A stretch of 64,000 nt of DNA from Escherichia phage PGN829.1. A model generated the notes under the pieces. The model had not been told where the DNA came from, ran no database searches, and saw only the letters and a program-made list of their open reading frames with translations. The DNA lies in sequence record NC_070871.1; one strand, written 5' to 3'. The translations under genes and the position numbers were made by a program. Shown in pieces: positions 405 to 47,390 of the stretch. How positions within the stretch are numbered: the stretch's first letter is position 1; each line of letters starts with the position of its first letter.

Positions 405-2465
405 TTACTTAACTGCTTTAACCAGCTTGGTAGCTAATTTAGCTTCTTCTTCAGTCAGACCCATTGCAGTGAATGACTTCTTAGCATGACGTTTATAGTC
501 TTGCAGAGCATGGCCTTTCTGATAGTCAGAATATGACGTATCGTTCAGGATGCTACGCAGATTATCAACGTGTTTACCAGAAGGAGCTACTTTAGAAGCA
601 GCAGCAGAACGTGTAGGTTTAACTGTCTTATCCTGCTTAACAGCTTTAGGTTTACCAATAGGCTTAGTTGTATAGGTAGCACGTACATCAGCAATCTTAG
701 CTACCACGTCACTACCTACATCAAATGCAGCCCAAGGCTTACGAGCTTTGGAACGCAGTTCTACCAGAAGGTCAGCAGCAGCTAACTTATCTTCTGGTGT
801 TGTTGCATTAAGGAACTCTTTAACCAGTTCCTGGATTTGTTCTTTCACAGTAGGAGCCTTCTTAATAACGGGTTTAAGGTCAGTAGCCTTCACTGGTTCA
901 GCAGCTACAGCTTCATTCAGTGACTCTTCCATGTCCAGTGCTTCTTTGCTAGCAACTGTACGGAATTGTTCTACAGAACCAGATGTGAGATTGGTGTATT
1001 TGAGGTTAGCACCACGATGTCCACCAACCATAATAAGTGTGGTAGGTGAACTATGGTTCCCAACGATGGCATCATTAAGTAGTTTCTTACCTACTTCAGT
1101 TTTAGACAAATAGATACCACTGTTAACGTTATTACGTTCCTCTTCCGACAGTTCAGCAATAATGTGATACGCAGATACACGCATCTTATTAGTGCTGTAC
1201 TGAGGAACAGCAAATACATCTTCTGGTGCTACTTTACCAAGGATAGTTACGTTACCACCGAAGCTACGAATATAGCTCATGGATGCTACATGCAGACCGT
1301 TAGAACAGTCCTGACGACGGTCAGGATCTACCAGGTCTTCCCGTACCTGCACTTTACAGCCTACCCACTGTTTGATGTTACCTGAGTGACAGTCAACGAA
1401 TACACGTTTACCATCTTCTTTCCCTTTATACTGAAGGCGTTTAAGGAACAGGATTGAACCATCATCAGCGATAGGCAATTCAGCAGTTTCCATGAACTTC
1501 ATCAGGTCTTCTACTGAGTGCAGACGGTCTTTAATAACCGGAGCCAGACGCTCAAGGAACTTAGTAAAGCCCTTGTAGTCTTTCAACTTGGCAGACTGAC
1601 GTAAGTGACGTTGCAGGTTCTCAACTCCGGGGATAACCCCATCGTTGGTAACAGCAACAACCACTTCATCTTCCTTCACATCAGTGTGAAAGTTAGCGTT
1701 ATCAGTACTAATAGCACCTAATGCAGCTAATTTCTCGGATGCAGCAGCCAGCTTATCCTGGTTCGTAGTTTTAGCTACTTCAATGTAAGGCAGTGGTGTT
1801 TGTTCTCGGTTGGTAAATACAAAATGTACGCCTTTGATGTTCTTGGCTTGTTTAGCAAACTCACCCATTTCATCATCGGATACTGCACGAATGGCAATAG
1901 GCCATTCCTGTCTAAGTACAGTGACAGTAAGATCAGAATTCCCCCACAATACGTCTTTAATAAAACGAATTAGTGCAGGATGGTTATGGTCTTTGTCCCA
2001 GCCAATAACCCACATCAGGTTGTCACGCTTGTCATAAAAACCATCTGTTACTGTTACTTCTGGTTCATTAGCCTGTATAGCCAGGAAGGTATCCATAGCT
2101 TTAGATACTAATGTCTTAGTAGGATTGCCCAGCTTAATATCAGAAACGATACGAGCTGGTGGAACACCTGTACCATCCTGAAAGAACTCTTTGAGTTTAG
2201 CTTTAGCGACCTTGAAGAAACGGACAAATCCATTAGTGTTCTTCTCTGCTTCCAGATACTCAGTACGTAGTGATACTTCTGGTGCAATGTTTACTTCTAT
2301 CAGGTCTTTGGTAATTCCCAAGCCTTTGGTTTGTGCTTCAGATACAATACGAGCAACCCGTGGGTCGCTCTGAGGATATACAATTGTGGAGCCATCGGGC
2401 TTCCACAGTGTAAGGTTACGACTGTCAACTGCCAGTGCGATGATAGAAATCAGTTCGATTTTCAT
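405..2465 (-). CDS. rIIB-like protein (by position; large conserved early-region protein)
   Basis: 686-aa ORF co-oriented with and 4 nt downstream of the GHKL-ATPase rIIA-like gene; order matches rIIA-rIIB pairs; no motif verified. Confidence 0.4.
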   Translation of the reverse strand: MKIELISIIALAVDSRNLTLWKPDGSTIVYPQSDPRVARIVSEAQTKGLGITKDLIEVNIAPEVSLRTEYLEAEKNTNGFVRFFKVAKAKLKEFFQDGTGVPPARIVSDIKLGNPTKTLVSKAMDTFLAIQANEPEVTVTDGFYDKRDNLMWVIGWDKDHNHPALIRFIKDVLWGNSDLTVTVLRQEWPIAIRAVSDDEMGEFAKQAKNIKGVHFVFTNREQTPLPYIEVAKTTNQDKLAAASEKLAALGAISTDNANFHTDVKEDEVVVAVTNDGVIPGVENLQRHLRQSAKLKDYKGFTKFLERLAPVIKDRLHSVEDLMKFMETAELPIADDGSILFLKRLQYKGKEDGKRVFVDCHSGNIKQWVGCKVQVREDLVDPDRRQDCSNGLHVASMSYIRSFGGNVTILGKVAPEDVFAVPQYSTNKMRVSAYHIIAELSEEERNNVNSGIYLSKTEVGKKLLNDAIVGNHSSPTTLIMVGGHRGANLKYTNLTSGSVEQFRTVASKEALDMEESLNEAVAAEPVKATDLKPVIKKAPTVKEQIQELVKEFLNATTPEDKLAAADLLVELRSKARKPWAAFDVGSDVVAKIADVRATYTTKPIGKPKAVKQDKTVKPTRSAAASKVAPSGKHVDNLRSILNDTSYSDYQKGHALQDYKRHAKKSFTAMGLTEEEAKLATKLVKAVK

Positions 2466-2469
2466 CAGA

Positions 2470-5037
2470 TTAGTTACCTTTCAGTTTATTTAGACGATTA
2501 CGGTAGAGGGACTTAAACCCAGGAATATCCTCTGGATTCTTCTTAAGGTGTTTGACCAAACTGCCCAAGTCCAGCGTCTGTAAGATGTCATTTTTATCCC
2601 AGCTATAGCTGAATAATTCTTTGTAACCATTAAGTATTTCAAAGTACTTATGGTTACGTGGATTAGTCATCACTATATATGGCTCTAGGTCATCTACTGA
2701 CTTAATGCAACCCATTTCAACAAGTTTTTCTTTGTTGTCATGTGGTCTATTCCGTAGAAAGTCGTATGCCCATTCATACTCTGGTTTAAAAATCAGATTC
2801 TGTAATGGTTTGAACGTTAGACCCAGTATGCCAAGGATTTCCCAATACTCTCTGTCATCCAGTCCTATGTATTCCAGAATACCGATGCGATGTTCAGTAA
2901 CATATTTCTTGAAGTCCTTACTGGTAATAACAGACATCAACTCATTAAAGCGAACATCATCAATGTGGATAGCACCTCGCCGTTTGGCCTTATTAGCTTC
3001 GATTTGATTGCGACAGACAACAGTATCTTCTTTCATCTCATCAGATAGCTCATACCATTTCCACATGGTTCCAATTCTGGCAGTTAATGGACTACCAGAA
3101 CCAACCTGATTAGCCAGTACATAGTACTTAGGATGCTCTACTTCAACGAAACCATACTTTTCATGACGACTTGGGTCAGCAAACTCCTTCTGAATATACG
3201 GCTTAGATTCCCAATCACCGTTTTTATTACGTACAGGAGTAGTACCAAGAACTGCATTCAATGAAATCAGAGCATTAGTTTTACCCCCTGCTTTGGTTTT
3301 ATTGGCAGCTATTGTCTTAGCCCGTTTCTCAGCAGCTATCTTAGCCTGCTCTCTGCGGTAGTTGGTTGGTTTGTCCCACTCATTATATTGAGTAAGGTCA
3401 ATCACCCGATAACCCATAGCAGTGAACTTAGCTACAGCTTCTTCTGCTGCACCCTTCTTAGGACCAACTAAGTGAACAAAAGCTGTACGCTCCAGGTCAC
3501 CTCGGTTGTATTCTGGGAAGTATGAGAAAGAGTCTGCACAATCAGATAAACGTCGGGTAACTACAACGTTCTTGGTAGTGAATATGCCAATACTCTGATG
3601 AGAGTTATGGAATATCCTAAAGTAGTCAGCGAGTTTACCCTTCTCCAAGTCAACACTGTTACCCTGGTTCACTATGTAACCAGACCACTTAATACCAGTA
3701 GCTTTTAAAGCAGCAAGCTGAGGTAAGTGTAGATGACGATATACTAATTCATGGAATGGGGAGTATGTACTTTCTTCGCGAGTATCCTTAAGAGCACGCA
3801 TAGCCTTACCATACAGCTTCTTAAGACCTGTATATTCAGGACGAGCTAATAATGCTTTATTGGATAGATTACGCCAATGCTTGATGTGATGCTTACGTTG
3901 CTTAGCCCACAAACTAGAGGACATATAACGTTGAACGATTCTGTCTGTAACAGCAAGCAGGAAAGGTGGATATTCCCAAAAGCGGGTAGAGGATTTAGAA
4001 GCATATTCCTCAACCTGCTTAATAGCTTCAGGAATCTTAGCCTTAATTTCCTTCTCCATACGGTCTACTAAATCTACACATAGAGTAGTAATACCATCGT
4101 CGGTTAACTTCTGGTTAGACAGTGTTTCTCGACTAGGAGCAATAGCTAGTGTATCTGGTGCAGCCTGAACTACTAAATTATCAGCACCAATGATATTCAT
4201 GAAGTTGAGAATAAGACCAACAGCCTCTTCACTAGCTGGGCTAGATACTATTGGGTACATTACGTTACCGTAACGAACAAATAAGTTACTGTTACCCATA
4301 TAGCCTTGATACCAGCTATCAGACATGTCATATGAACCAGGTTCAAATGACATACCTAACGTATTCAGTAAAGTGTAGTCACCCTGGTGAATACTATTAC
4401 CTTCCTCTGTTCTAACGAGTTTAGGAATACTAAGCTCAGCTTTAATCTCACCGTTAAATACAATAGATGTAATGTAATGCACAAAGGTATTTACATCATG
4501 CTTACCTAGCTGGAATTTAACTTCCAGACCAGATTCCTCAGTAGGAATATTAGTAACAATAGGAACAATACCCGGTTTACCATCGTTCTCAATTGCAGCT
4601 TTAGCTACGTTATATACCGACATCTTTCCTTGGTTCCATGAAGTAACCTGGAAGCTATCCGTATAAGCGAATGGAGATTTACATCCCAGACCAAAACCAC
4701 CAGTAACACTACTGTTGGACTTCTTAGTAGATGCACCATAGACACCATAAATGGAACCAATGAGTTCATCAGGGATGCCATTACCGAAGTCACGGAAGGT
4801 AATAAAGTTGTCAGTATCAATAGTGATACGAATAGGGGTATCAGTCTTACCTGCTTCAATATGAGCATCCCAACTGTTACAGATAGTCTCACGGACTACT
4901 GCCAGAGTAGGATTGTTATATAAGGAAGTACTTAATACGTGAAAGAATGCCGGGTCATCAGAGATGCCAAAGGCAATTGTTTCTTTGCCACCCAGTGTCG
5001 CTGAGGTAGCTACTTCATTGGTATCTGCAACTAACAT
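2470..5037 (-). CDS. rIIA-like protein with GHKL (Bergerat-fold) ATPase domain
   Basis: 855 aa; N-terminal GHKL motifs read in translation: N-box ETICNSWDAH, G1 box DFGNG, G2 box GGFGLG. Confidence 0.6.
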   Translation of the reverse strand: MLVADTNEVATSATLGGKETIAFGISDDPAFFHVLSTSLYNNPTLAVVRETICNSWDAHIEAGKTDTPIRITIDTDNFITFRDFGNGIPDELIGSIYGVYGASTKKSNSSVTGGFGLGCKSPFAYTDSFQVTSWNQGKMSVYNVAKAAIENDGKPGIVPIVTNIPTEESGLEVKFQLGKHDVNTFVHYITSIVFNGEIKAELSIPKLVRTEEGNSIHQGDYTLLNTLGMSFEPGSYDMSDSWYQGYMGNSNLFVRYGNVMYPIVSSPASEEAVGLILNFMNIIGADNLVVQAAPDTLAIAPSRETLSNQKLTDDGITTLCVDLVDRMEKEIKAKIPEAIKQVEEYASKSSTRFWEYPPFLLAVTDRIVQRYMSSSLWAKQRKHHIKHWRNLSNKALLARPEYTGLKKLYGKAMRALKDTREESTYSPFHELVYRHLHLPQLAALKATGIKWSGYIVNQGNSVDLEKGKLADYFRIFHNSHQSIGIFTTKNVVVTRRLSDCADSFSYFPEYNRGDLERTAFVHLVGPKKGAAEEAVAKFTAMGYRVIDLTQYNEWDKPTNYRREQAKIAAEKRAKTIAANKTKAGGKTNALISLNAVLGTTPVRNKNGDWESKPYIQKEFADPSRHEKYGFVEVEHPKYYVLANQVGSGSPLTARIGTMWKWYELSDEMKEDTVVCRNQIEANKAKRRGAIHIDDVRFNELMSVITSKDFKKYVTEHRIGILEYIGLDDREYWEILGILGLTFKPLQNLIFKPEYEWAYDFLRNRPHDNKEKLVEMGCIKSVDDLEPYIVMTNPRNHKYFEILNGYKELFSYSWDKNDILQTLDLGSLVKHLKKNPEDIPGFKSLYRNRLNKLKGN

Positions 5038-13891: not shown

Positions 13892-15109
13892 TTAACTTAA
13901 TGCATAGTCTGTTTCGAGAATGTCCTGCCAGAGGCTGTCATCCAGCTTACCAGCAGAGAACTCTTGTCCCAGTACCTGAGACAGAATGAATCCCAGTAGG
14001 TCACTCTTAGCAATGTCAGACAGAATCTGGTTGTACTGACGACGTAAGTCATTACCGTAGTTAGGATGGCAACGGAAGCAGTCATGTACAGTCATTACAG
14101 GGAATGGTTTCTTAGGCATAGTATTGAGCATAGCCATGATTACATCTGTATCAACCAATGCAATCGTTTCTGAGTCCAGATAGTCAAAGATACGGGTAGA
14201 CAGGAAGCCAGACTTCTCATAACTAGTCCACAGTGTATTAACCATTTCATAGTTATCATCAGAACCTACCATGTAGTCACCAGTTCCTTCACAGAGGGAC
14301 TTAATATAGTTCACCTGGTTCATATCGAAGTTACAACGACGTAGCATCTCACGTACCACCATTCCATCAATAGAGTGGGTGATGTTAGCAGAGAGCATAC
14401 GGGTCTTCTCTTCAGTACCCTGAACCATACGAGTGATGTCAAATGGCTTACCTAAGAAGTTAACAGTCTGTACTTCTGGAACCATGACCTTAATGACAGC
14501 ATGGAAGTTGTCAGGTAATACCCATACGTAACGATTAGCATCCGGGTTACCACATTGCAGTAAGAACTTGTTAAGTGCCCAAGGACCACTTGCAACTGTT
14601 TCCATTACATTTTCAAAAGTCTTGAGACGGATACCATCCCCGAATACTTCTTTAGGTTTGGCTTCTGAACCGTAGAATGCAGTCATAACTGCCTGCTTGG
14701 TATCACTACGTTTAATACGGGATGCTTCCCCAAGGATGTCCAGCATCTTGTGATAGATAACTGTATAGGCATCACGACGTAATGGCTTACCATTCTCTCC
14801 CATGTAGTTAACTACGTTACACAGTTCAGCAGCAGAACGGTCACCAGTCAGGCAGGCCAGTAACTGCAAGCCTGATGATGTAGCATCCAGGGCTACGGCA
14901 TATCCGATAGGCTTACCAGCTTTCATATCTTTCCATGCGTTTATGCCAGCATAGAATAGTGCAGATTCTTCAGCTTCATCTACCAGATTAAGCAGGTTAG
15001 CTTCGTTCTCATCGAACCAAGCAATACGCTCATCCCAGGTCTTTTTATCCAGTCCGTAAGAATTCGCAATATCAATTTTTAAATACTCTTTCGGTGTGAA
15101 AATCTGCAT
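13892..15109 (-). CDS. phage RNA polymerase II large subunit (T7-like single-subunit RNAP C-terminal half; N4 gp16-like)
   Basis: 405 aa; DATSSGLQ resembles T7 RNAP motif A (DGSCSGIQ) and HDCF resembles motif C (HDSF); size matches N4 p4B. Confidence 0.75.
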   Translation of the reverse strand: MQIFTPKEYLKIDIANSYGLDKKTWDERIAWFDENEANLLNLVDEAEESALFYAGINAWKDMKAGKPIGYAVALDATSSGLQLLACLTGDRSAAELCNVVNYMGENGKPLRRDAYTVIYHKMLDILGEASRIKRSDTKQAVMTAFYGSEAKPKEVFGDGIRLKTFENVMETVASGPWALNKFLLQCGNPDANRYVWVLPDNFHAVIKVMVPEVQTVNFLGKPFDITRMVQGTEEKTRMLSANITHSIDGMVVREMLRRCNFDMNQVNYIKSLCEGTGDYMVGSDDNYEMVNTLWTSYEKSGFLSTRIFDYLDSETIALVDTDVIMAMLNTMPKKPFPVMTVHDCFRCHPNYGNDLRRQYNQILSDIAKSDLLGFILSQVLGQEFSAGKLDDSLWQDILETDYALS

Positions 15110-15110
15110 C

Positions 15111-15704
15111 TTAGGCTCCTAGTTTCCACTTATATCCGTATGCTTGTGCATACGTACCATTAATTACTTTATTAATATTAGAAGGTATACCATTAACACT
15201 TCGTGCAGCAGCACTGAGTGAATGGAACGTCTTAATGTATTCACCATCTAGTGAGTACTGCTCAACAGGTTTAGCTGATTTAGTATTGATGCCCTTGATT
15301 GCGTCGGAGTAGTACCTCTTTACGTTGGTATTAGCTGTAACAATGCGAATGTTATCCAGGGAGTAACCTTTGTAATCATCCAGTCTGTCTAAGCTAGGCT
15401 TCAAGGCAGTTGGGTAATTTTCCAATACCCACTCGTCATACAATGTGTGAAATTCTTTTCTTGAGTATACCCATTTCTCTAGCTCCTCCTTAGTGAAGGA
15501 TACAGGAGTAAATCCTTTCTTCTTGGTTCTACTAATACAGCCGGAGTACATTTGATTAATGACTCCGTGTTTTGAGCGTATAAAGCGTTTAAGGCAGTCT
15601 TTACAGTCTGCCCTTACACCTTGCTTACCTGTGGACTGTTTATTGAACATGTCCAGAGGCAAGTTCTGCTTACATACTGAACATGTCTTCATACTAATCC
15701 TCAT
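15111..15704 (-). CDS. homing-endonuclease-like protein (zinc finger + HNH-like region + NUMOD-like C-terminal DNA-binding motif)
   Basis: 197 aa; CxxC...CxxC near N-terminus; LDRLDDYKGYSLDNIRIVTANTN (HNH-like); C-terminal VEQYSLDGEYIKTFHSLSAAARSVNG...AYGYKW (NUMOD1-like). Inserted between the two RNAP II subunit genes. Confidence 0.5.
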   Translation of the reverse strand: MRISMKTCSVCKQNLPLDMFNKQSTGKQGVRADCKDCLKRFIRSKHGVINQMYSGCISRTKKKGFTPVSFTKEELEKWVYSRKEFHTLYDEWVLENYPTALKPSLDRLDDYKGYSLDNIRIVTANTNVKRYYSDAIKGINTKSAKPVEQYSLDGEYIKTFHSLSAAARSVNGIPSNINKVINGTYAQAYGYKWKLGA

Positions 15705-16512
15705 TTACTAGTTCTTTGTCTGCAAATTCGATAACAGCTTTGTTATAGGAAGTACCTGCATAATTAATATGGTAACCACAGGCATATGTACGCCCTCGTT
15801 TGTCATATTTGTGAGCCAAGGAGAAGTTATTACCTTCTTTGGTCACTAACTCCATTACTTCCTTAGCAGTACGGCTGTACTTCTCAAAGGCTTTAACACG
15901 TTTCTCATAGTCCTGACGGGTTTCGCCTTCTTTGGGCTTATCCATATTAGGACGAGAGTCTTTTACATAGTTAGCAACGTCCCAGTTGATACTTAGTCGT
16001 TGATTATTCATACGGTTGATATGGTCAAGACAGACATCCATCTCATGATGGTTCTTCTTGAGGATGATACTTCCCCTGCTCTCGTAGTAACCTGTATCAC
16101 GGTTACACAGAACAGGCTTAGGAGCACTTACGATAGGTAATGGATACTGGAATGCTTCCAGTTCCATCTGAACATCTTCACTAATCTCATAGATAACACC
16201 GAACTTGTCGATGGTGGGGTCATAGTTGAAGCAGTCATTCTCTGCCATCTTATACAGACAGTCAGCAATGTACTGAGCATCATCTGAATGGCTCATGAGA
16301 GAGCCAATCATAGTCTGAATGTCAGCACGTTTATGTAGGGCAATCTGCACCATTGCATCAATGAGCAGCTTATAATCAATTTCCAAATAGGCAGCGAATG
16401 CCTTAAAGTCAATTTCTTCGGAGTCCTCAAATTCCTTCCTCATGCGAGGCAAGAGCTGATTTTTATTGAATAGTTTTTCGAGTTGCTTCTGATGTTCAAT
16501 GGATGAGTACAT
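15694..16512 (-). CDS. phage RNA polymerase II small subunit (T7-like RNAP N-terminal part; N4 gp15-like)
   Basis: 272 aa (N4 p4A about 269 aa); DKRGRTYACGY resembles the T7 RNAP DxRGRxY region; directly upstream of large subunit apart from the endonuclease insertion. Confidence 0.6.
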   Translation of the reverse strand: MYSSIEHQKQLEKLFNKNQLLPRMRKEFEDSEEIDFKAFAAYLEIDYKLLIDAMVQIALHKRADIQTMIGSLMSHSDDAQYIADCLYKMAENDCFNYDPTIDKFGVIYEISEDVQMELEAFQYPLPIVSAPKPVLCNRDTGYYESRGSIILKKNHHEMDVCLDHINRMNNQRLSINWDVANYVKDSRPNMDKPKEGETRQDYEKRVKAFEKYSRTAKEVMELVTKEGNNFSLAHKYDKRGRTYACGYHINYAGTSYNKAVIEFADKELVNED

Positions 16513-19523: not shown

Positions 19524-19997
19524 TTAATCCTTACCATGATTAGAGTGGAAACCATATTCATTGTTAGCTAACTCTCTAGCTTCTACAGCTTCTTCGAAAG
19601 TGTTGAATCTACCTAAATGCTTTAGCTTACCATTAATCTTTATACGAACTCTCCATTTACCAGCTTCATATCTTACTCCCGTTGCACCTGACGTATTATT
19701 AGAAGCTCTACTTCTATTACGATTGTTATCTTGGGAAGATACTGCCCTTAGGTTTTCTAAACGGTCATCTGTTCGTATGTGATTGATATGGTCAACCATA
19801 TAACCGTCAGGCAATTTACCGTTGTGCATTTCCCAGATTATAGTAGCTGCCTTAAGATGTCGGTATTTTACTTGGACATATACATATCCACTGTACGTGT
19901 CGAAACTTCCAGCAATATCCCCACTTTTAGCTCTGCCACTACTAACCTTCCAGTAGAGTTTGCCTTCACGGTAGGAGAAGAGTTCATGCCAGTCCAT
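19524..19997 (-). CDS. HNH homing endonuclease with AP2-type DNA-binding domain
   Basis: 157 aa; YMVDHINHIRTDDRLENLR (HNH_3-type) and GVRYEAGKWRVRIKINGKLKHLGRFNTFEEA (AP2-like). Confidence 0.65.
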   Translation of the reverse strand: MDWHELFSYREGKLYWKVSSGRAKSGDIAGSFDTYSGYVYVQVKYRHLKAATIIWEMHNGKLPDGYMVDHINHIRTDDRLENLRAVSSQDNNRNRSRASNNTSGATGVRYEAGKWRVRIKINGKLKHLGRFNTFEEAVEARELANNEYGFHSNHGKD

Positions 19998-44363: not shown

Positions 44364-44820
44364 CAGGAGAATCCCCATGGATTTGTCATTCTTAACAGGC
44401 AACCCAACTCCACAGCCAGCTGCTATGTCTTGGATGCCTAATAACAATCAGAACTTTAATACCCCGACTATGAACTATAACCCAGGTGCAACTATTGGTA
44501 TGGGGGCAAATACAGGAGTAGCCTCCCCTACTTCTTTCCTGTCTGGTTCAGCTGATCAGTTGGGATTGAATGTACCTACCTTCCAGTTAGGCTTGGGTGC
44601 ACTTGGTTCATTAGCTAATATCTACAGTGGTTTCCAGGCTAATAAGTTAGCCAAAGACCAGTTGAACTTTACCAAAAGTGTTACTAACACTAACCTGAAT
44701 AACCAGATTAAGTCTTATAACACTGCACTGGAAGACCGTGCTCGTAGTCGTGCTACGGCAGAAAACCGTGACCAGTCTACTGCTGATGCTTATATTGCAG
44801 CTAATAAACTAACTCGTTAA
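44356..44820 (+). CDS. virion protein
   Basis: 154-aa ORF overlapping the upstream stop by 8 nt. Confidence 0.35.
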   Translation: MFNRRIPMDLSFLTGNPTPQPAAMSWMPNNNQNFNTPTMNYNPGATIGMGANTGVASPTSFLSGSADQLGLNVPTFQLGLGALGSLANIYSGFQANKLAKDQLNFTKSVTNTNLNNQIKSYNTALEDRARSRATAENRDQSTADAYIAANKLTR

Positions 44821-44892
44821 TAGGAAACCATCATGGCTCATTGAGTTTTGGGTATTGTTTAGTTAGTATGTGCCAATACTAGGAGAACTGCT

Positions 44893-45429
44893 ATGAAACA
44901 ATATCCAAACTCAAATATTAACGTTCAGTGGAAACCTGCTCATATGGTTAATTCTGGCTGCAAATTTTCTACTAAAACCGAAGATGGTAGTAAGACATGC
45001 TCTGCATACATAAGATGGTGGGGTATGTTTATGCGGTGTTACAATCCTACCAATCCTGGTTATCCTCAATATGGTGCTAAAGGAGTTGTTGTTAGCAAAG
45101 AGTGGGGTAACTACCAAGACTTTGCTCAATGGTACTATGATTCCTGTTTTCTTTTAGGCATTGATCCGGAAAACAATAACTTCCAACTGGATAAAGATAA
45201 TGGGCCTGTCCCTGAGTATAGTCCAAAAGTTTGTAAACTAGTCCCAGTGTCTGACAATGTAGCTAAGGCTAATAGTAAATCACACTGGTACATAAACCCC
45301 AATGGTGACATTGTGGAAATCATTAATTTAAACAAATTCTGCCGTGAGCATGGGTTAAGTCGCAAACAAATGTATCGTTTGCGGGATGGAACTTGTGAAT
45401 CTCACCGAGGATGGAGGCTTTACGTATGA
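44893..45429 (+). CDS. homing-endonuclease-like protein (paralog of the 15111-15704 product) inserted in the late operon
   Basis: 178 aa; shares W..M.RC, F..W and LDKDN...P.NCK-like motifs with the 197-aa product; Cys/His-rich. Confidence 0.4.
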   Translation: MKQYPNSNINVQWKPAHMVNSGCKFSTKTEDGSKTCSAYIRWWGMFMRCYNPTNPGYPQYGAKGVVVSKEWGNYQDFAQWYYDSCFLLGIDPENNNFQLDKDNGPVPEYSPKVCKLVPVSDNVAKANSKSHWYINPNGDIVEIINLNKFCREHGLSRKQMYRLRDGTCESHRGWRLYV

Positions 45430-47390
45430 GTCAGATAACCTGGCGTAATGTTGATGCACCTAACTTTTCTGGAGTTGGTGACAGCATTCGCACATTTGGC
45501 AATATGATTGGTAACGCTACCTCCGGCTTAAGTGATGCACTGGGTAATTTCCAGAACGCTGCTAAGCAGGAGGCTGGCAATGCCGTCATGATGAATGCTA
45601 TGCAATACCAAGACCCTACTGAGTATCGTAATGCTTTGGCATCTGGTGCATTGTTCCAGGGGGTTGACCCTTCACTTGTAAGTCAACGCACTCTCCAGAA
45701 TCTGGATGAGCGAGCAGGTACTCTTCTGACTCAGCAAGGTCAGCAGGGAGCCAATGACTACAATGCTTATCGTTTTGGTCGTTTACAGGACACTGACTCT
45801 GCATTAGATAATGCATCCCCAGCTATTCGTTTATTGTCTGAGGCTTATCAGTCTGGTGACCAGAATCGTATTAATGCTGCACTGGGTCAGACACGAGAGG
45901 CATTATCGGCACTCCCTGCTGACCAACAGTTGGAGATGTTAGGACGTCTTCAAGGTCAAGGTGGTGCTGCTATTAACCAAGCACAAAACCGTTTTGATTT
46001 GGGTGTGGCTCAACGTAACGATGCGGATAGTCAGGCTGCTTTAGGTGTAATGTCACAAATTACCCGTGGTGCTGAGAACCCCAATGATGCTCGTTTGTTG
46101 GCAGAAGCATATAGTAAGAACCTTTCCCCTGTTGCACAGGCACGTTTACAGGAAATGCTTGCTCGTGCATACCCGGGTGTTTACGGCAATAATGTTGGTG
46201 CTACATCCGCTCCCGGTACTGCTGGTACTCGTCAGGGTTCTCCTTATGATGTTACTTATCAGTTTGCTGGTACATCTACCCCTATTACTCAAATGAGTAT
46301 TGGTGATGTAATTAAACATCAGGACGTTATGAAGACTAATCAGGGTGCTTCACCTGTTGGTGCATTCCAGATTAACCAAGCTACTCTGCAAGACTTTGCC
46401 CCCAAAGTTCTTGGTTCAGATTGGAAGAATCAGCCTCTTTCCCCTGAGAACCAGGAGAAGATTGGTAAGGCTATCTTCGAGGCTCGTAAGAACGGCAATC
46501 TTAAAGATACCTGGGCTGCTTTACCTAACTCTACCCCAGGTGCTTATAAGGATATGACTTGGGAACAGATTAAACCTGTTATTGCCCAAGCTGAAGTAGG
46601 GGCTGACCCATTTAATCTGACTCAGAATAGTCAAGGGAATCAGGCAGTATCTACCTTGGCTCAGGGTATGATTGGTACTCGCTCTATGCAGGATAATACC
46701 GGTAGTCTTAATACCGATTTCCTGGGTACTGTCACCGATAATACTCCAGTAGGTGAGATTGCTAATCGTCTGCTGGATGGTGACTTTAAGGGTGCTGACC
46801 GTAACTGGGTACTTAACAGATTAACTGATATTTCTCAACGTGGGAATATGTCACCAGCTATGGCTGCTGCTGTTATGCAACGTGCACAGACCGGTGTACC
46901 AGAAGGATACATTAGCCGTGCTATTGATGCGGTTAACCCATTCATTACTAATGAAGCCGGTAATGGTATGCGTCTTAATGACCGTCTGGTAGATCAGTTA
47001 ATTGAGGGTGTACAACGAGGTGAACCACTGGAAGGAAGTGTACGTAATCTTGGGCGTGCTCAAGCTATGCAGAACATTCAGGCAGCACAGACTGCTTATG
47101 ATGCTGCTGTAGCTGCACTGACAAATACCCAGAACAAGATTAACACTGGACAAACTGGACTTACTGCATTGTTACCTGCACGTCAGGAAGCTGTTACTAA
47201 AGCTGCTGCAATGCTTCAAGCTGCACAAGCCCAGGTACAAGCAGACCCAGCTAATCTGGCTCCAAGAGGTTTTCGGTCACAGGCTAGCGTGGACAGAGCA
47301 CGAGCCAAGGAAGATGAAGAACGTGCTGCACGTTACCTACGTCAGGCACAAGGTTTGCCTGAGTATATGCAACCAAGACAAAATCGGTAA
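45426..47390 (+). CDS. internal virion protein (N4 gp51-like by position, immediately upstream of vRNAP)
   Basis: Trimmed to ATG at 45426 (GGAGG SD); Ala/Gln-rich, likely co-injected protein. Confidence 0.4.
   Translation: MSQITWRNVDAPNFSGVGDSIRTFGNMIGNATSGLSDALGNFQNAAKQEAGNAVMMNAMQYQDPTEYRNALASGALFQGVDPSLVSQRTLQNLDERAGTLLTQQGQQGANDYNAYRFGRLQDTDSALDNASPAIRLLSEAYQSGDQNRINAALGQTREALSALPADQQLEMLGRLQGQGGAAINQAQNRFDLGVAQRNDADSQAALGVMSQITRGAENPNDARLLAEAYSKNLSPVAQARLQEMLARAYPGVYGNNVGATSAPGTAGTRQGSPYDVTYQFAGTSTPITQMSIGDVIKHQDVMKTNQGASPVGAFQINQATLQDFAPKVLGSDWKNQPLSPENQEKIGKAIFEARKNGNLKDTWAALPNSTPGAYKDMTWEQIKPVIAQAEVGADPFNLTQNSQGNQAVSTLAQGMIGTRSMQDNTGSLNTDFLGTVTDNTPVGEIANRLLDGDFKGADRNWVLNRLTDISQRGNMSPAMAAAVMQRAQTGVPEGYISRAIDAVNPFITNEAGNGMRLNDRLVDQLIEGVQRGEPLEGSVRNLGRAQAMQNIQAAQTAYDAAVAALTNTQNKINTGQTGLTALLPARQEAVTKAAAMLQAAQAQVQADPANLAPRGFRSQASVDRARAKEDEERAARYLRQAQGLPEYMQPRQNR

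Follow-up and report, generated by a model that had tools for sequence, protein, structure and literature searches.

A stretch of 64,000 nucleotides from Escherichia phage PGN829.1 (NC_070871.1; this whole stretch is called the window below), a G7C-like phage of the genus Gamaleyavirus, contains an ATG-initiated open reading frame (ORF) on the forward strand at 44893..45429, which encodes a protein of 178 amino acids (aa) as described in a first-pass annotation. We consider it likely, with a probability of about 0.8, that this ORF is a selfish, mobile, free-standing homing-endonuclease gene with an inferred nuclease role, and that the 593-bp cassette to which it belongs lies within the first codons of gp51. 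In N4-like phages, gp51 is the periplasmic-tunnel ejection protein gene of a conserved operon that consists of gp52, gp51, and the virion RNA polymerase (vRNAP) gene. Our reading is based on the presence or absence of the gene at a fixed site, the same empty site in two phage genera, the conflict between the history of the gene and that of its flanks, purifying selection on the protein, and the predicted fold.

The 178-aa ORF is not a chance reading frame, because it has homologues at 57–94% identity with ratios of nonsynonymous to synonymous substitution (dN/dS) of 0.04–0.11 and matches the PHROG family 2081 (E 6.7e-38). Such low dN/dS values, obtained like the identities below from codon-level comparisons with the window, show strong purifying selection on the encoded protein.

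The cassette at the gp52-gp51 junction

The gene is located between orthologues of gp52 and gp51 and upstream of the vRNAP gene, in agreement with the first-pass annotation, which had placed it between structural genes close to vRNAP. The upstream gp52 orthologue (44377..44820, forward strand, 147 aa; the 16.5 kDa virion or ejection protein of N4) was assigned by alignment with N4 and Gamaleyavirus sequences and by PHROG 2646 (E 6.9e-50). The downstream gp51 orthologue (45426..47390, forward strand, 654 aa; the 66 kDa virion or ejection protein of N4) was assigned by PHROG 6126 and by alignment with empty-site relatives whose proteins begin with MAQITW. The real starts of the two genes are ATG 44377 (MDLSFL...) and ATG 45426 (MSQITW...), and the mechanically listed TTG 44356 and ATG 45411 are wrong. 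A gene for a 3456-aa vRNAP comes after gp51. In N4, gp52 and gp51 are adjacent with no gene between them, and gp52-gp51-gp50 has been described as a conserved Schitoviridae operon for three ejection proteins (PMC13434306).

That N4-type gene order would not predict a gene at this position was borne out by synteny comparison. With a 2.6-kb query centered on this region, matches were obtained in 58 phage records, mostly Gamaleyavirus, 57 of which aligned in pieces that skip approximately 593 bp; the sole record carrying the block was that of phage ST4. The block is also present in phage VEc25, which belongs to the species Enquatrovirus N4 of another genus, and is missing from 15 of the 16 genomes of that species. 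An uninterrupted gp52-gp51 junction was found in 70 of 88 records. In a protein search, only two phage records exceeded 60% identity, namely VEc25 (94%) and ST4 (67%). Besides these two phages, the carriers are a few metagenomic N4-like contigs, and in all carriers the homologue is at the gp52-gp51 junction. Three metagenomic homologues (78%, 62%, and 57% identity) are all located between gp52-like and gp51-like genes; the next downstream gene encodes vRNAP Pfam domains in contigs L006 and L007, and in contig L008 it is large, cut by the contig end, and has no Pfam hit on record. One of the three contigs encodes a vRNAP of 3959 aa. More distant relatives (37–43% identity) occur in unrelated contexts in Vibrio phages. 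Since all homologues at 57% identity or above are at the gp52-gp51 site and the 37–43% relatives are elsewhere, the clade at ≥57% identity appears to be a specialist of the gp51-start site in several genera of N4-like phages.

The anatomy of the junctions was derived from an alignment of three carriers with three empty sites. The inserted cassette (44841..45433, forward strand, 593 bp net, with a junction that is ambiguous by a few bases) interrupts the first codons of gp51 (codons 3–5). In both genera the empty site reads ...ATGGCTCAAATTACATGGCGTAATGTTGATGC..., with a sequence of 32 nucleotides (nt) which shows no difference between N4 and Gamaleyavirus, and gp51 there starts M-A-Q-I-T-W-R-N-V-D; empty sites also read ...GGAAACCATCATGGCTCAAATTACATGG. 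The corresponding left flank of the cassette retains a relic of the old gp51 start (44821..44844, forward strand), in which the former ribosome-binding region and ATGGCTCA are kept and now run into ATG GCT CAT TGA at 44833–44844, leaving the three-codon mini-ORF ATGGCTCATTGA. On the right side, the 5' end of gp51 has been rebuilt from the right half of the former target, ATGAGTCAGATAACCTGGCGTAATGTTGATGC (45426..45457, forward strand), as identified by alignment with the empty sites. The new gp51 ATG overlaps the endonuclease stop codon (ATGA), and gp51 now starts M-S-Q-I-T-W. Compared with the empty site, the carrier sequence beside this junction has GCT>AGT at codon 2 (Ala to Ser) and three silent changes (CAA>CAG, ATT>ATA, and ACA>ACC). 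An equivalent relic mini-ORF and a rebuilt gp51 start were found in six of six endonuclease-bearing loci, and in all three metagenomic loci the endonuclease stop overlaps or abuts the gp51 start.

No copy of the intact 33-nt target was found in the window when up to three mismatches were allowed. An exact search of IMG/VR detected the empty-site sequence in six contigs and gave no match for the carrier-type right junction. The GC content falls within the cassette, which has a value of 0.39 versus 0.47 in gp51.

The gene and its flanks have different histories. The VEc25 gene is 90% identical to that of the window at the nucleotide level (94% aa), while gp52 is 70% and gp51 only 58% identical (48% aa in gp51). 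The opposite pattern was observed for ST4, whose endonuclease gene is 67% identical (66% aa) and whose gp52 and gp51 are both 90% identical at the nucleotide level. In the metagenomic contigs, the protein is also better conserved than its neighbors: 56% aa identity for the endonuclease versus 39% for gp52 and 27% for gp51 in L007, and 61% versus 23% for gp51 in L008. Thus, the history of the endonuclease gene conflicts with that of the flanking genes, pointing to horizontal spread. As the VEc25 gene is 90% identical while gp51 is only 58% identical, the exchange between phage genera was recent. Next to the right junction, the window and VEc25 share only about 12 nt, comprising the four codon changes mentioned above, beyond which the flanks are lineage-specific. 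High identity between the window and VEc25 was also noticed at 44700–44830 and considered as a co-conversion tract; it was rejected because it reflects ordinary conservation of the gp52 3' end, which is common to cassette-free genomes.

Homologues at the same site in very divergent N4-like genomes might also be expected if the gene were ancestral there, inherited vertically and deleted many times. We regard this as scarcely credible: the phylogeny of the gene is at odds with those of its flanks in either direction, every loss would have to restore the same gp51 start, identical in two genera, and the GC content of the cassette differs from that of its flanks. A mobile gene at a conserved target is preferred. 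The first ~50 nt of gp51 are conserved as far as the N4-like phages of Klebsiella, Achromobacter, and Rhizobium, and the start of gp51 is the kind of essential, slowly evolving target that a homing endonuclease would be expected to exploit. The site makes this a tidy natural case of intronless homing between genera, in which the empty site and the carrier allele are defined and the target is short, and the product of the target gene has recently been studied structurally. For the engineering of N4-like phages, the cassette marks a site in the ejection operon that tolerates approximately 0.6 kb of foreign DNA.

There are also implications for annotation, given that the VEc25 copy is annotated as "hypothetical protein", the ST4 copy is not annotated, and the mechanical starts of both neighboring genes are wrong. 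A literature search on VEc25 returned no relevant paper. In ST4 (L002, OM982646), the intact homologue encodes 183 aa at 2601–3152, with about 58 nt of overlap with the gp51 start as annotated, and the virion RNA polymerase is named "DNA polymerase" in this record. In the N4-like Vibrio phage pVa5 (L017), three "HNH endonuclease" genes are present within 2.4 kb (2413–4753) among small genes, one of which encodes a relative of the 178-aa protein with 37% identity.

Predicted expression signals in the cassette

Six alleles with 60–90% identity in their coding DNA were used to align the 60-nt leader, which extends from the relic to the start codon of the endonuclease gene. Based on conservation in these alleles, a sigma-70-type promoter is predicted at 44841..44875 on the forward strand, with a −35 element TTGAGT (44841–44846), a 17-nt spacer, a −10 element TAGTAT (44864–44869), and CA at 44874–44875. 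The invariant columns of the leader are TTGA of the −35 element, T1, A2, and T6 of the −10 element, the 17-nt spacing, and CA five to six bases further; this conserved CA is likely the transcription start. The −35 hexamer includes the in-frame TGA with which the relic mini-ORF terminates. A promoter of this type in the cassette is plausible because late N4 genes are transcribed by the host sigma-70 polymerase (PMC4496689). Within the leader, the block GTTTAG-TTA-n-TATGTG-n-CA (44858–44875 in the window; alleles L001, L002, and L006–L008) is conserved beyond the needs of a −10 hexamer. We interpret it as the promoter together with the start site, although a binding site (e.g., one through which the endonuclease regulates its own gene) or a signal recognized by a different polymerase would be an alternative.

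The putative Shine-Dalgarno region of the endonuclease, TAGGAGAAC (44880..44888, forward strand), was recognized from the sequence and ends 4 nt before the ATG. In the 5' leader, we found no RNA structure that would sequester the ribosome-binding site, the predicted fold being no better than that of shuffled sequences (z = −0.27). A generic scan detected no terminator and a single promoter-like site, which lies within gp52; this is fewer than expected by chance. At the other end of the cassette, the sequence ...GGATGGAGGCTTTACGTATGAGTCAGATAACCTGGCGTAATG... contains GGAGG (45413..45417, forward strand), a putative Shine-Dalgarno sequence for gp51 which is located within the last endonuclease codons (G-W-R) and followed by the new gp51 ATG 8 nt further on. 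Other alleles have an equivalent GGAG(G/A), which is made up of the Trp-Arg codons in the characteristic G-W-R terminus of this lineage.

The strong purifying selection and the seeming presence of a cassette promoter ahead of gp51 and vRNAP are also what might be seen if the gene had been domesticated as a DNA-binding protein or nuclease that benefits the phage, either by excluding or degrading co-infecting N4-like competitors or by regulating the ejection operon. Marker exclusion has been reported for HNH endonucleases of Skunavirus phages (PMC12724721). Nevertheless, we consider domestication unlikely, in that the gene is absent in approximately 95% of close relatives and hence dispensable, and PADLOC gave no match for the 178-aa protein, thus providing no support for a role in a defence system. 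Moreover, exclusion is a normal by-product of homing and would be an added role of a mobile endonuclease rather than a true alternative to it.

Predicted fold and active site of the 178-aa protein

The first-pass annotation had called the product homing-endonuclease-like, and this was upheld both by its matches to PHROG families labeled "HNH endonuclease", phrog_2081 among them, and by its best structural neighbor. A single-sequence search against PDB sequences gave chance hits only. An exhaustive profile search retrieved 81,544 cluster representatives at E ≤ 1e-3, of which 104 reached E ≤ 1e-30; in many family members a C-terminal module of about 50 residues is multiplied, with up to six copies.

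An AlphaFold2 model built on 61 relatives (mean predicted local distance difference test score, pLDDT, 91.5) consists of two helices, a strand (residues 97–100), a loop, a second strand (115–118), and a helix (119–127), which are followed by a strand-strand-helix-turn-helix module. According to this model, the protein has the beta-beta-alpha (His-Me finger) topology with an omega-loop. The best Foldseek match was I-HmuI (E 4e-4), and the top fold matches comprised I-HmuI, PacI, DraIII, and Gme HNH. The predicted nuclease core spans residues 97–127 (45181..45273, forward strand), and its key residues are D100-K101-D102 (45190–45198), Y109-S-P (45217–45225), and N122 (45256–45258). The C-terminal part (residues 128–178; 45274..45426, forward strand) corresponds to a DNA-binding module of the I-HmuI type (NUMOD-like), as the family profile matches residues 108–169 of I-HmuI, its C-terminal DNA-binding domain, with E 2.1e-5. 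The Pfam family PF22083 ("I-HmuI NUMOD-like") is matched by 14 of the 61 relatives, and the window protein alone is below the Pfam threshold. The N-terminal part forms a helical R-C module. The earlier description of the product as Cys/His-rich holds for cysteine, with 7 residues (3.9%, above average), and not for histidine, with 4 (2.2%, ordinary); only C49 and C114 are conserved family-wide, and the protein has no CxxC pairs.

Comparison with known enzymes suggests how such a core could work. I-HmuI, the HNH homing endonuclease of Bacillus phage SPO1 (PDB 1u3e), has the same general layout, in which a beta-beta-alpha core precedes a C-terminal strand-strand-helix-turn-helix, the latter being detectable also by sequence. 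It differs in that it is intron-encoded and has the canonical D74-H75...N96 motif, whereas the 178-aa gene is free-standing, and its product has lysine (Lys) in place of histidine (His), no long N-terminal beta-sheet domain, and no Pfam HNH match. PacI, on the other hand, is an enzyme without the His, in which a single metal ion is bound by Asp and Asn and a loop Tyr acts as general base or nucleophile (PMC5714182, PMC4081073); R.PacI and the "PacI-like" phage HNH endonucleases form His-Me finger group 20 (Jablonska et al. 2017). When aligned by eye, VDRSD..GYSPQN...CNRIK of PacI corresponds to LDKDN..EYSPKV...SDNVAK of the 178-aa protein. The two would thus have in common a beta-beta-alpha core that lacks the His, in which Asp and Asn ligate the metal and a Tyr is located in the omega-loop, the roles in the 178-aa protein being presumptive. 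By contrast, PacI functions as a restriction enzyme, is homodimeric, and has two Cys4 zinc sites as well as an Arg following the Asp, whereas the 178-aa protein has Lys at this position, no CxxC pairs, and an extra I-HmuI-type DNA-binding module. The hidden Markov model (HMM) of the 178-aa family did not detect the PacI sequence. By analogy, the ligands of the single metal ion may be D100 and N122, and Y109 may stand in for the His with the assistance of K101. Considering the one active site and the I-HmuI-like layout, the protein would be expected to be a monomeric nicking enzyme, in keeping with I-HmuI and its relatives.

Several observations weigh against the interpretation of this ORF as a homing-endonuclease gene. 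Scans of the 178-aa protein with Pfam (E ≤ 1) and NCBIfam identified no family, HNH models of these collections included. Where the canonical catalytic His would be expected, at the end of the first strand, the protein has Lys101, a residue kept in 133 of approximately 134 relatives. We found no published demonstration of nuclease activity for the 178-aa protein or for any member of the D-K-D family. The predicted promoter scores only 8/12 against the consensus and was missed by the generic scan, whose threshold was 9/12, so that the case for it is built on positional conservation. Finally, a long co-conversion tract was looked for between the window and VEc25 and none was seen; as the flanks of each carrier are those of its own lineage up to the junction, the data do not constrain the position of the cut.

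The replacement of the His by K101 and the lack of a matching Pfam HNH model raise the possibility of a nuclease-dead remnant that lost its catalytic His and has been kept since its deletion would remove the Shine-Dalgarno sequence and start codon of the essential gp51, both of which indeed lie within the 3' end of the ORF. This explanation is quite improbable. The low dN/dS extends across the whole gene and not the 3' end alone, and the gene was transferred recently between genera, with 90% nucleotide identity versus 58% in gp51. In addition, D100, K101, Y109, and N122 are each kept in 133–134 of the approximately 134 domain-bearing relatives, which are no more than 50% identical to each other, and PacI, in which D...Y...N are arranged in the same way, has been proven to be an enzyme despite lacking the His. 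An active, mobile endonuclease is therefore favored over a remnant. At least 100 clusters (at 50% identity) labeled "HNH" conserve the His-less D-K-D/Y/N core, which makes this core relevant to enzymology; if the Lys/Tyr reading is true, it would be a catalytic variant for which the restriction enzyme PacI (Arg/Tyr) is the only precedent so far.

A homing cycle can be proposed on this basis. In a mixed infection, the protein would bind the conserved first ~30–50 bp of gp51 in a cassette-free genome and cut, or more likely nick, near ATGGCTCAAATT^ACATGG. Recombinational repair off the cassette-bearing genome would then copy the cassette into the cut genome. The carrier genome should be immune, because its site is split and the right half has five substitutions. 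The cassette seems to be self-sufficient and to do its host no harm. A sigma-70-type promoter and a ribosome-binding site of its own appear to come with it, and translation of gp51 would be restored by the final codons of the cassette, which supply GGAGG and an ATG that overlaps the stop codon.

A broader reading, which we put forward tentatively and think doubtful as a whole, would join these observations. The invariant D-K-D...Y-S-P...C...N signature may define a large clade of phage homing endonucleases in which a Lys/Tyr pair took the place of the His general base that is otherwise universal in the His-Me finger. Within this clade, the lineage of the 178-aa protein might be a gp51-start specialist across several Schitoviridae genera, whose own 3' end became fused to the translation signals of gp51 and whose own promoter may drive gp51 and vRNAP.

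Related mobile genes and other endonuclease genes in the genome

The arrangement resembles that of the free-standing seg and mob genes of T4-like phages, which are likewise stand-alone genes between conserved genes and sporadic among relatives. The seg and mob genes are usually found in intergenic gaps, often cut within the neighboring gene, and drag long co-conversion tracts. By contrast, the 178-aa gene lies within the coding start of its host gene, rebuilds the start codon and Shine-Dalgarno sequence from its own 3' end, and has at most about 12 nt of apparently co-converted sequence. Like them, it would presumably spread through cuts made in the cassette-free allele when two phages infect the same cell. 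Such free-standing homing-endonuclease genes and their "intronless homing" in T4-like phages are treated in two papers (PMC2988022, PMC2790892). A preprint on G7C-like phages noted that variable genes are often "related to homing endonucleases" (10.1101/542787), and "PacI-like" endonuclease genes have already been recognized in Skunavirus phages and "I-HmuI-like" ones in other phages. With these precedents, the 178-aa gene is ordinary in kind, albeit an unusually clean example; what is less ordinary is the His-less D-K-D/Y/N core, the rebuilding of a host start codon and Shine-Dalgarno sequence by the 3' end of a selfish gene, and the very short putative co-converted tract.

The first-pass annotation had counted at least three homing-endonuclease-like genes in this genome, and the other two (15111–15704 and 19524–19997) proved to be real and each sporadic among relatives. 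However, its proposal that the 178-aa protein is a second paralog of the 197-aa protein encoded at 15111–15704 was not supported. BLASTP revealed no similarity between the two proteins (best E 29), and homology was evident only at the profile level: when the two family profiles were compared with hhalign, residues 77–178 of the 178-aa protein, a C-terminal region of about 100 residues, aligned with residues 89–197 of the 197-aa protein (75% probability, E 2.6e-5, 14% identity). Among 399 ORFs of the window, the HMM of the 178-aa family matched the 197-aa ORF with E 2e-4 (next best E 1.2), and in the reciprocal search the HMM of the 197-aa family did not match the 178-aa ORF. As to the motif blocks that the two proteins were said to share, LDKDN/LDRLDD is present in both and aligned by the profiles, F..W is confined to the 178-aa protein and has a loose counterpart, YDEW, at the hhalign position, and W..M..RC occurs in the 178-aa protein only.

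The N-terminal modules of the two proteins also differ, being a helical R-C module in the 178-aa protein and a CxxC...CxxC zinc ribbon in the 197-aa protein; in the latter, the zinc ribbon and a DRLDD..GYSLDN motif are colinear with PacI. The distributions among relatives differ as well, and the suggested intragenomic spread of one endonuclease family is not supported. The two proteins are distant relatives within a single superfamily and have their core architecture in common, neither being copied from the other, and the three endonuclease genes of this genome were acquired independently.

The 197-aa gene (15111–15704, reverse strand) encodes an endonuclease of the PacI-like/NUMOD1 type (Pfam NUMOD1, 8.5e-8) and is located exactly between the genes for the two subunits of the phage RNA polymerase II, ORFs of 272 and 405 aa which relatives annotate as RNA polymerase (RNAP) subunits A and B; the flanking spans are 13892–15109 and 15694–16512. 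Only 5 of 57 relatives carry this version of the gene, among them G7C, whose record labels it "putative HNH homing endonuclease". Its true start is probably the second ATG (M5), because the homologues are 193 aa long. In other records the matched span at this locus varies from about 1270 to about 1880 bp, and some of them have a different "HNH homing endonuclease"; this variation suggests a hot spot at which alternative inserts are found. The third gene (19524–19997, reverse strand) encodes an HNH_3 and AP2 endonuclease (Pfam HNH_3, 2.9e-17; the AP2 match is weak and below the Pfam cut-off), and its distribution is sporadic as well: a 1.5-kb query that includes the gene was matched over 80% or more of its length in only 3 of 55 relatives.

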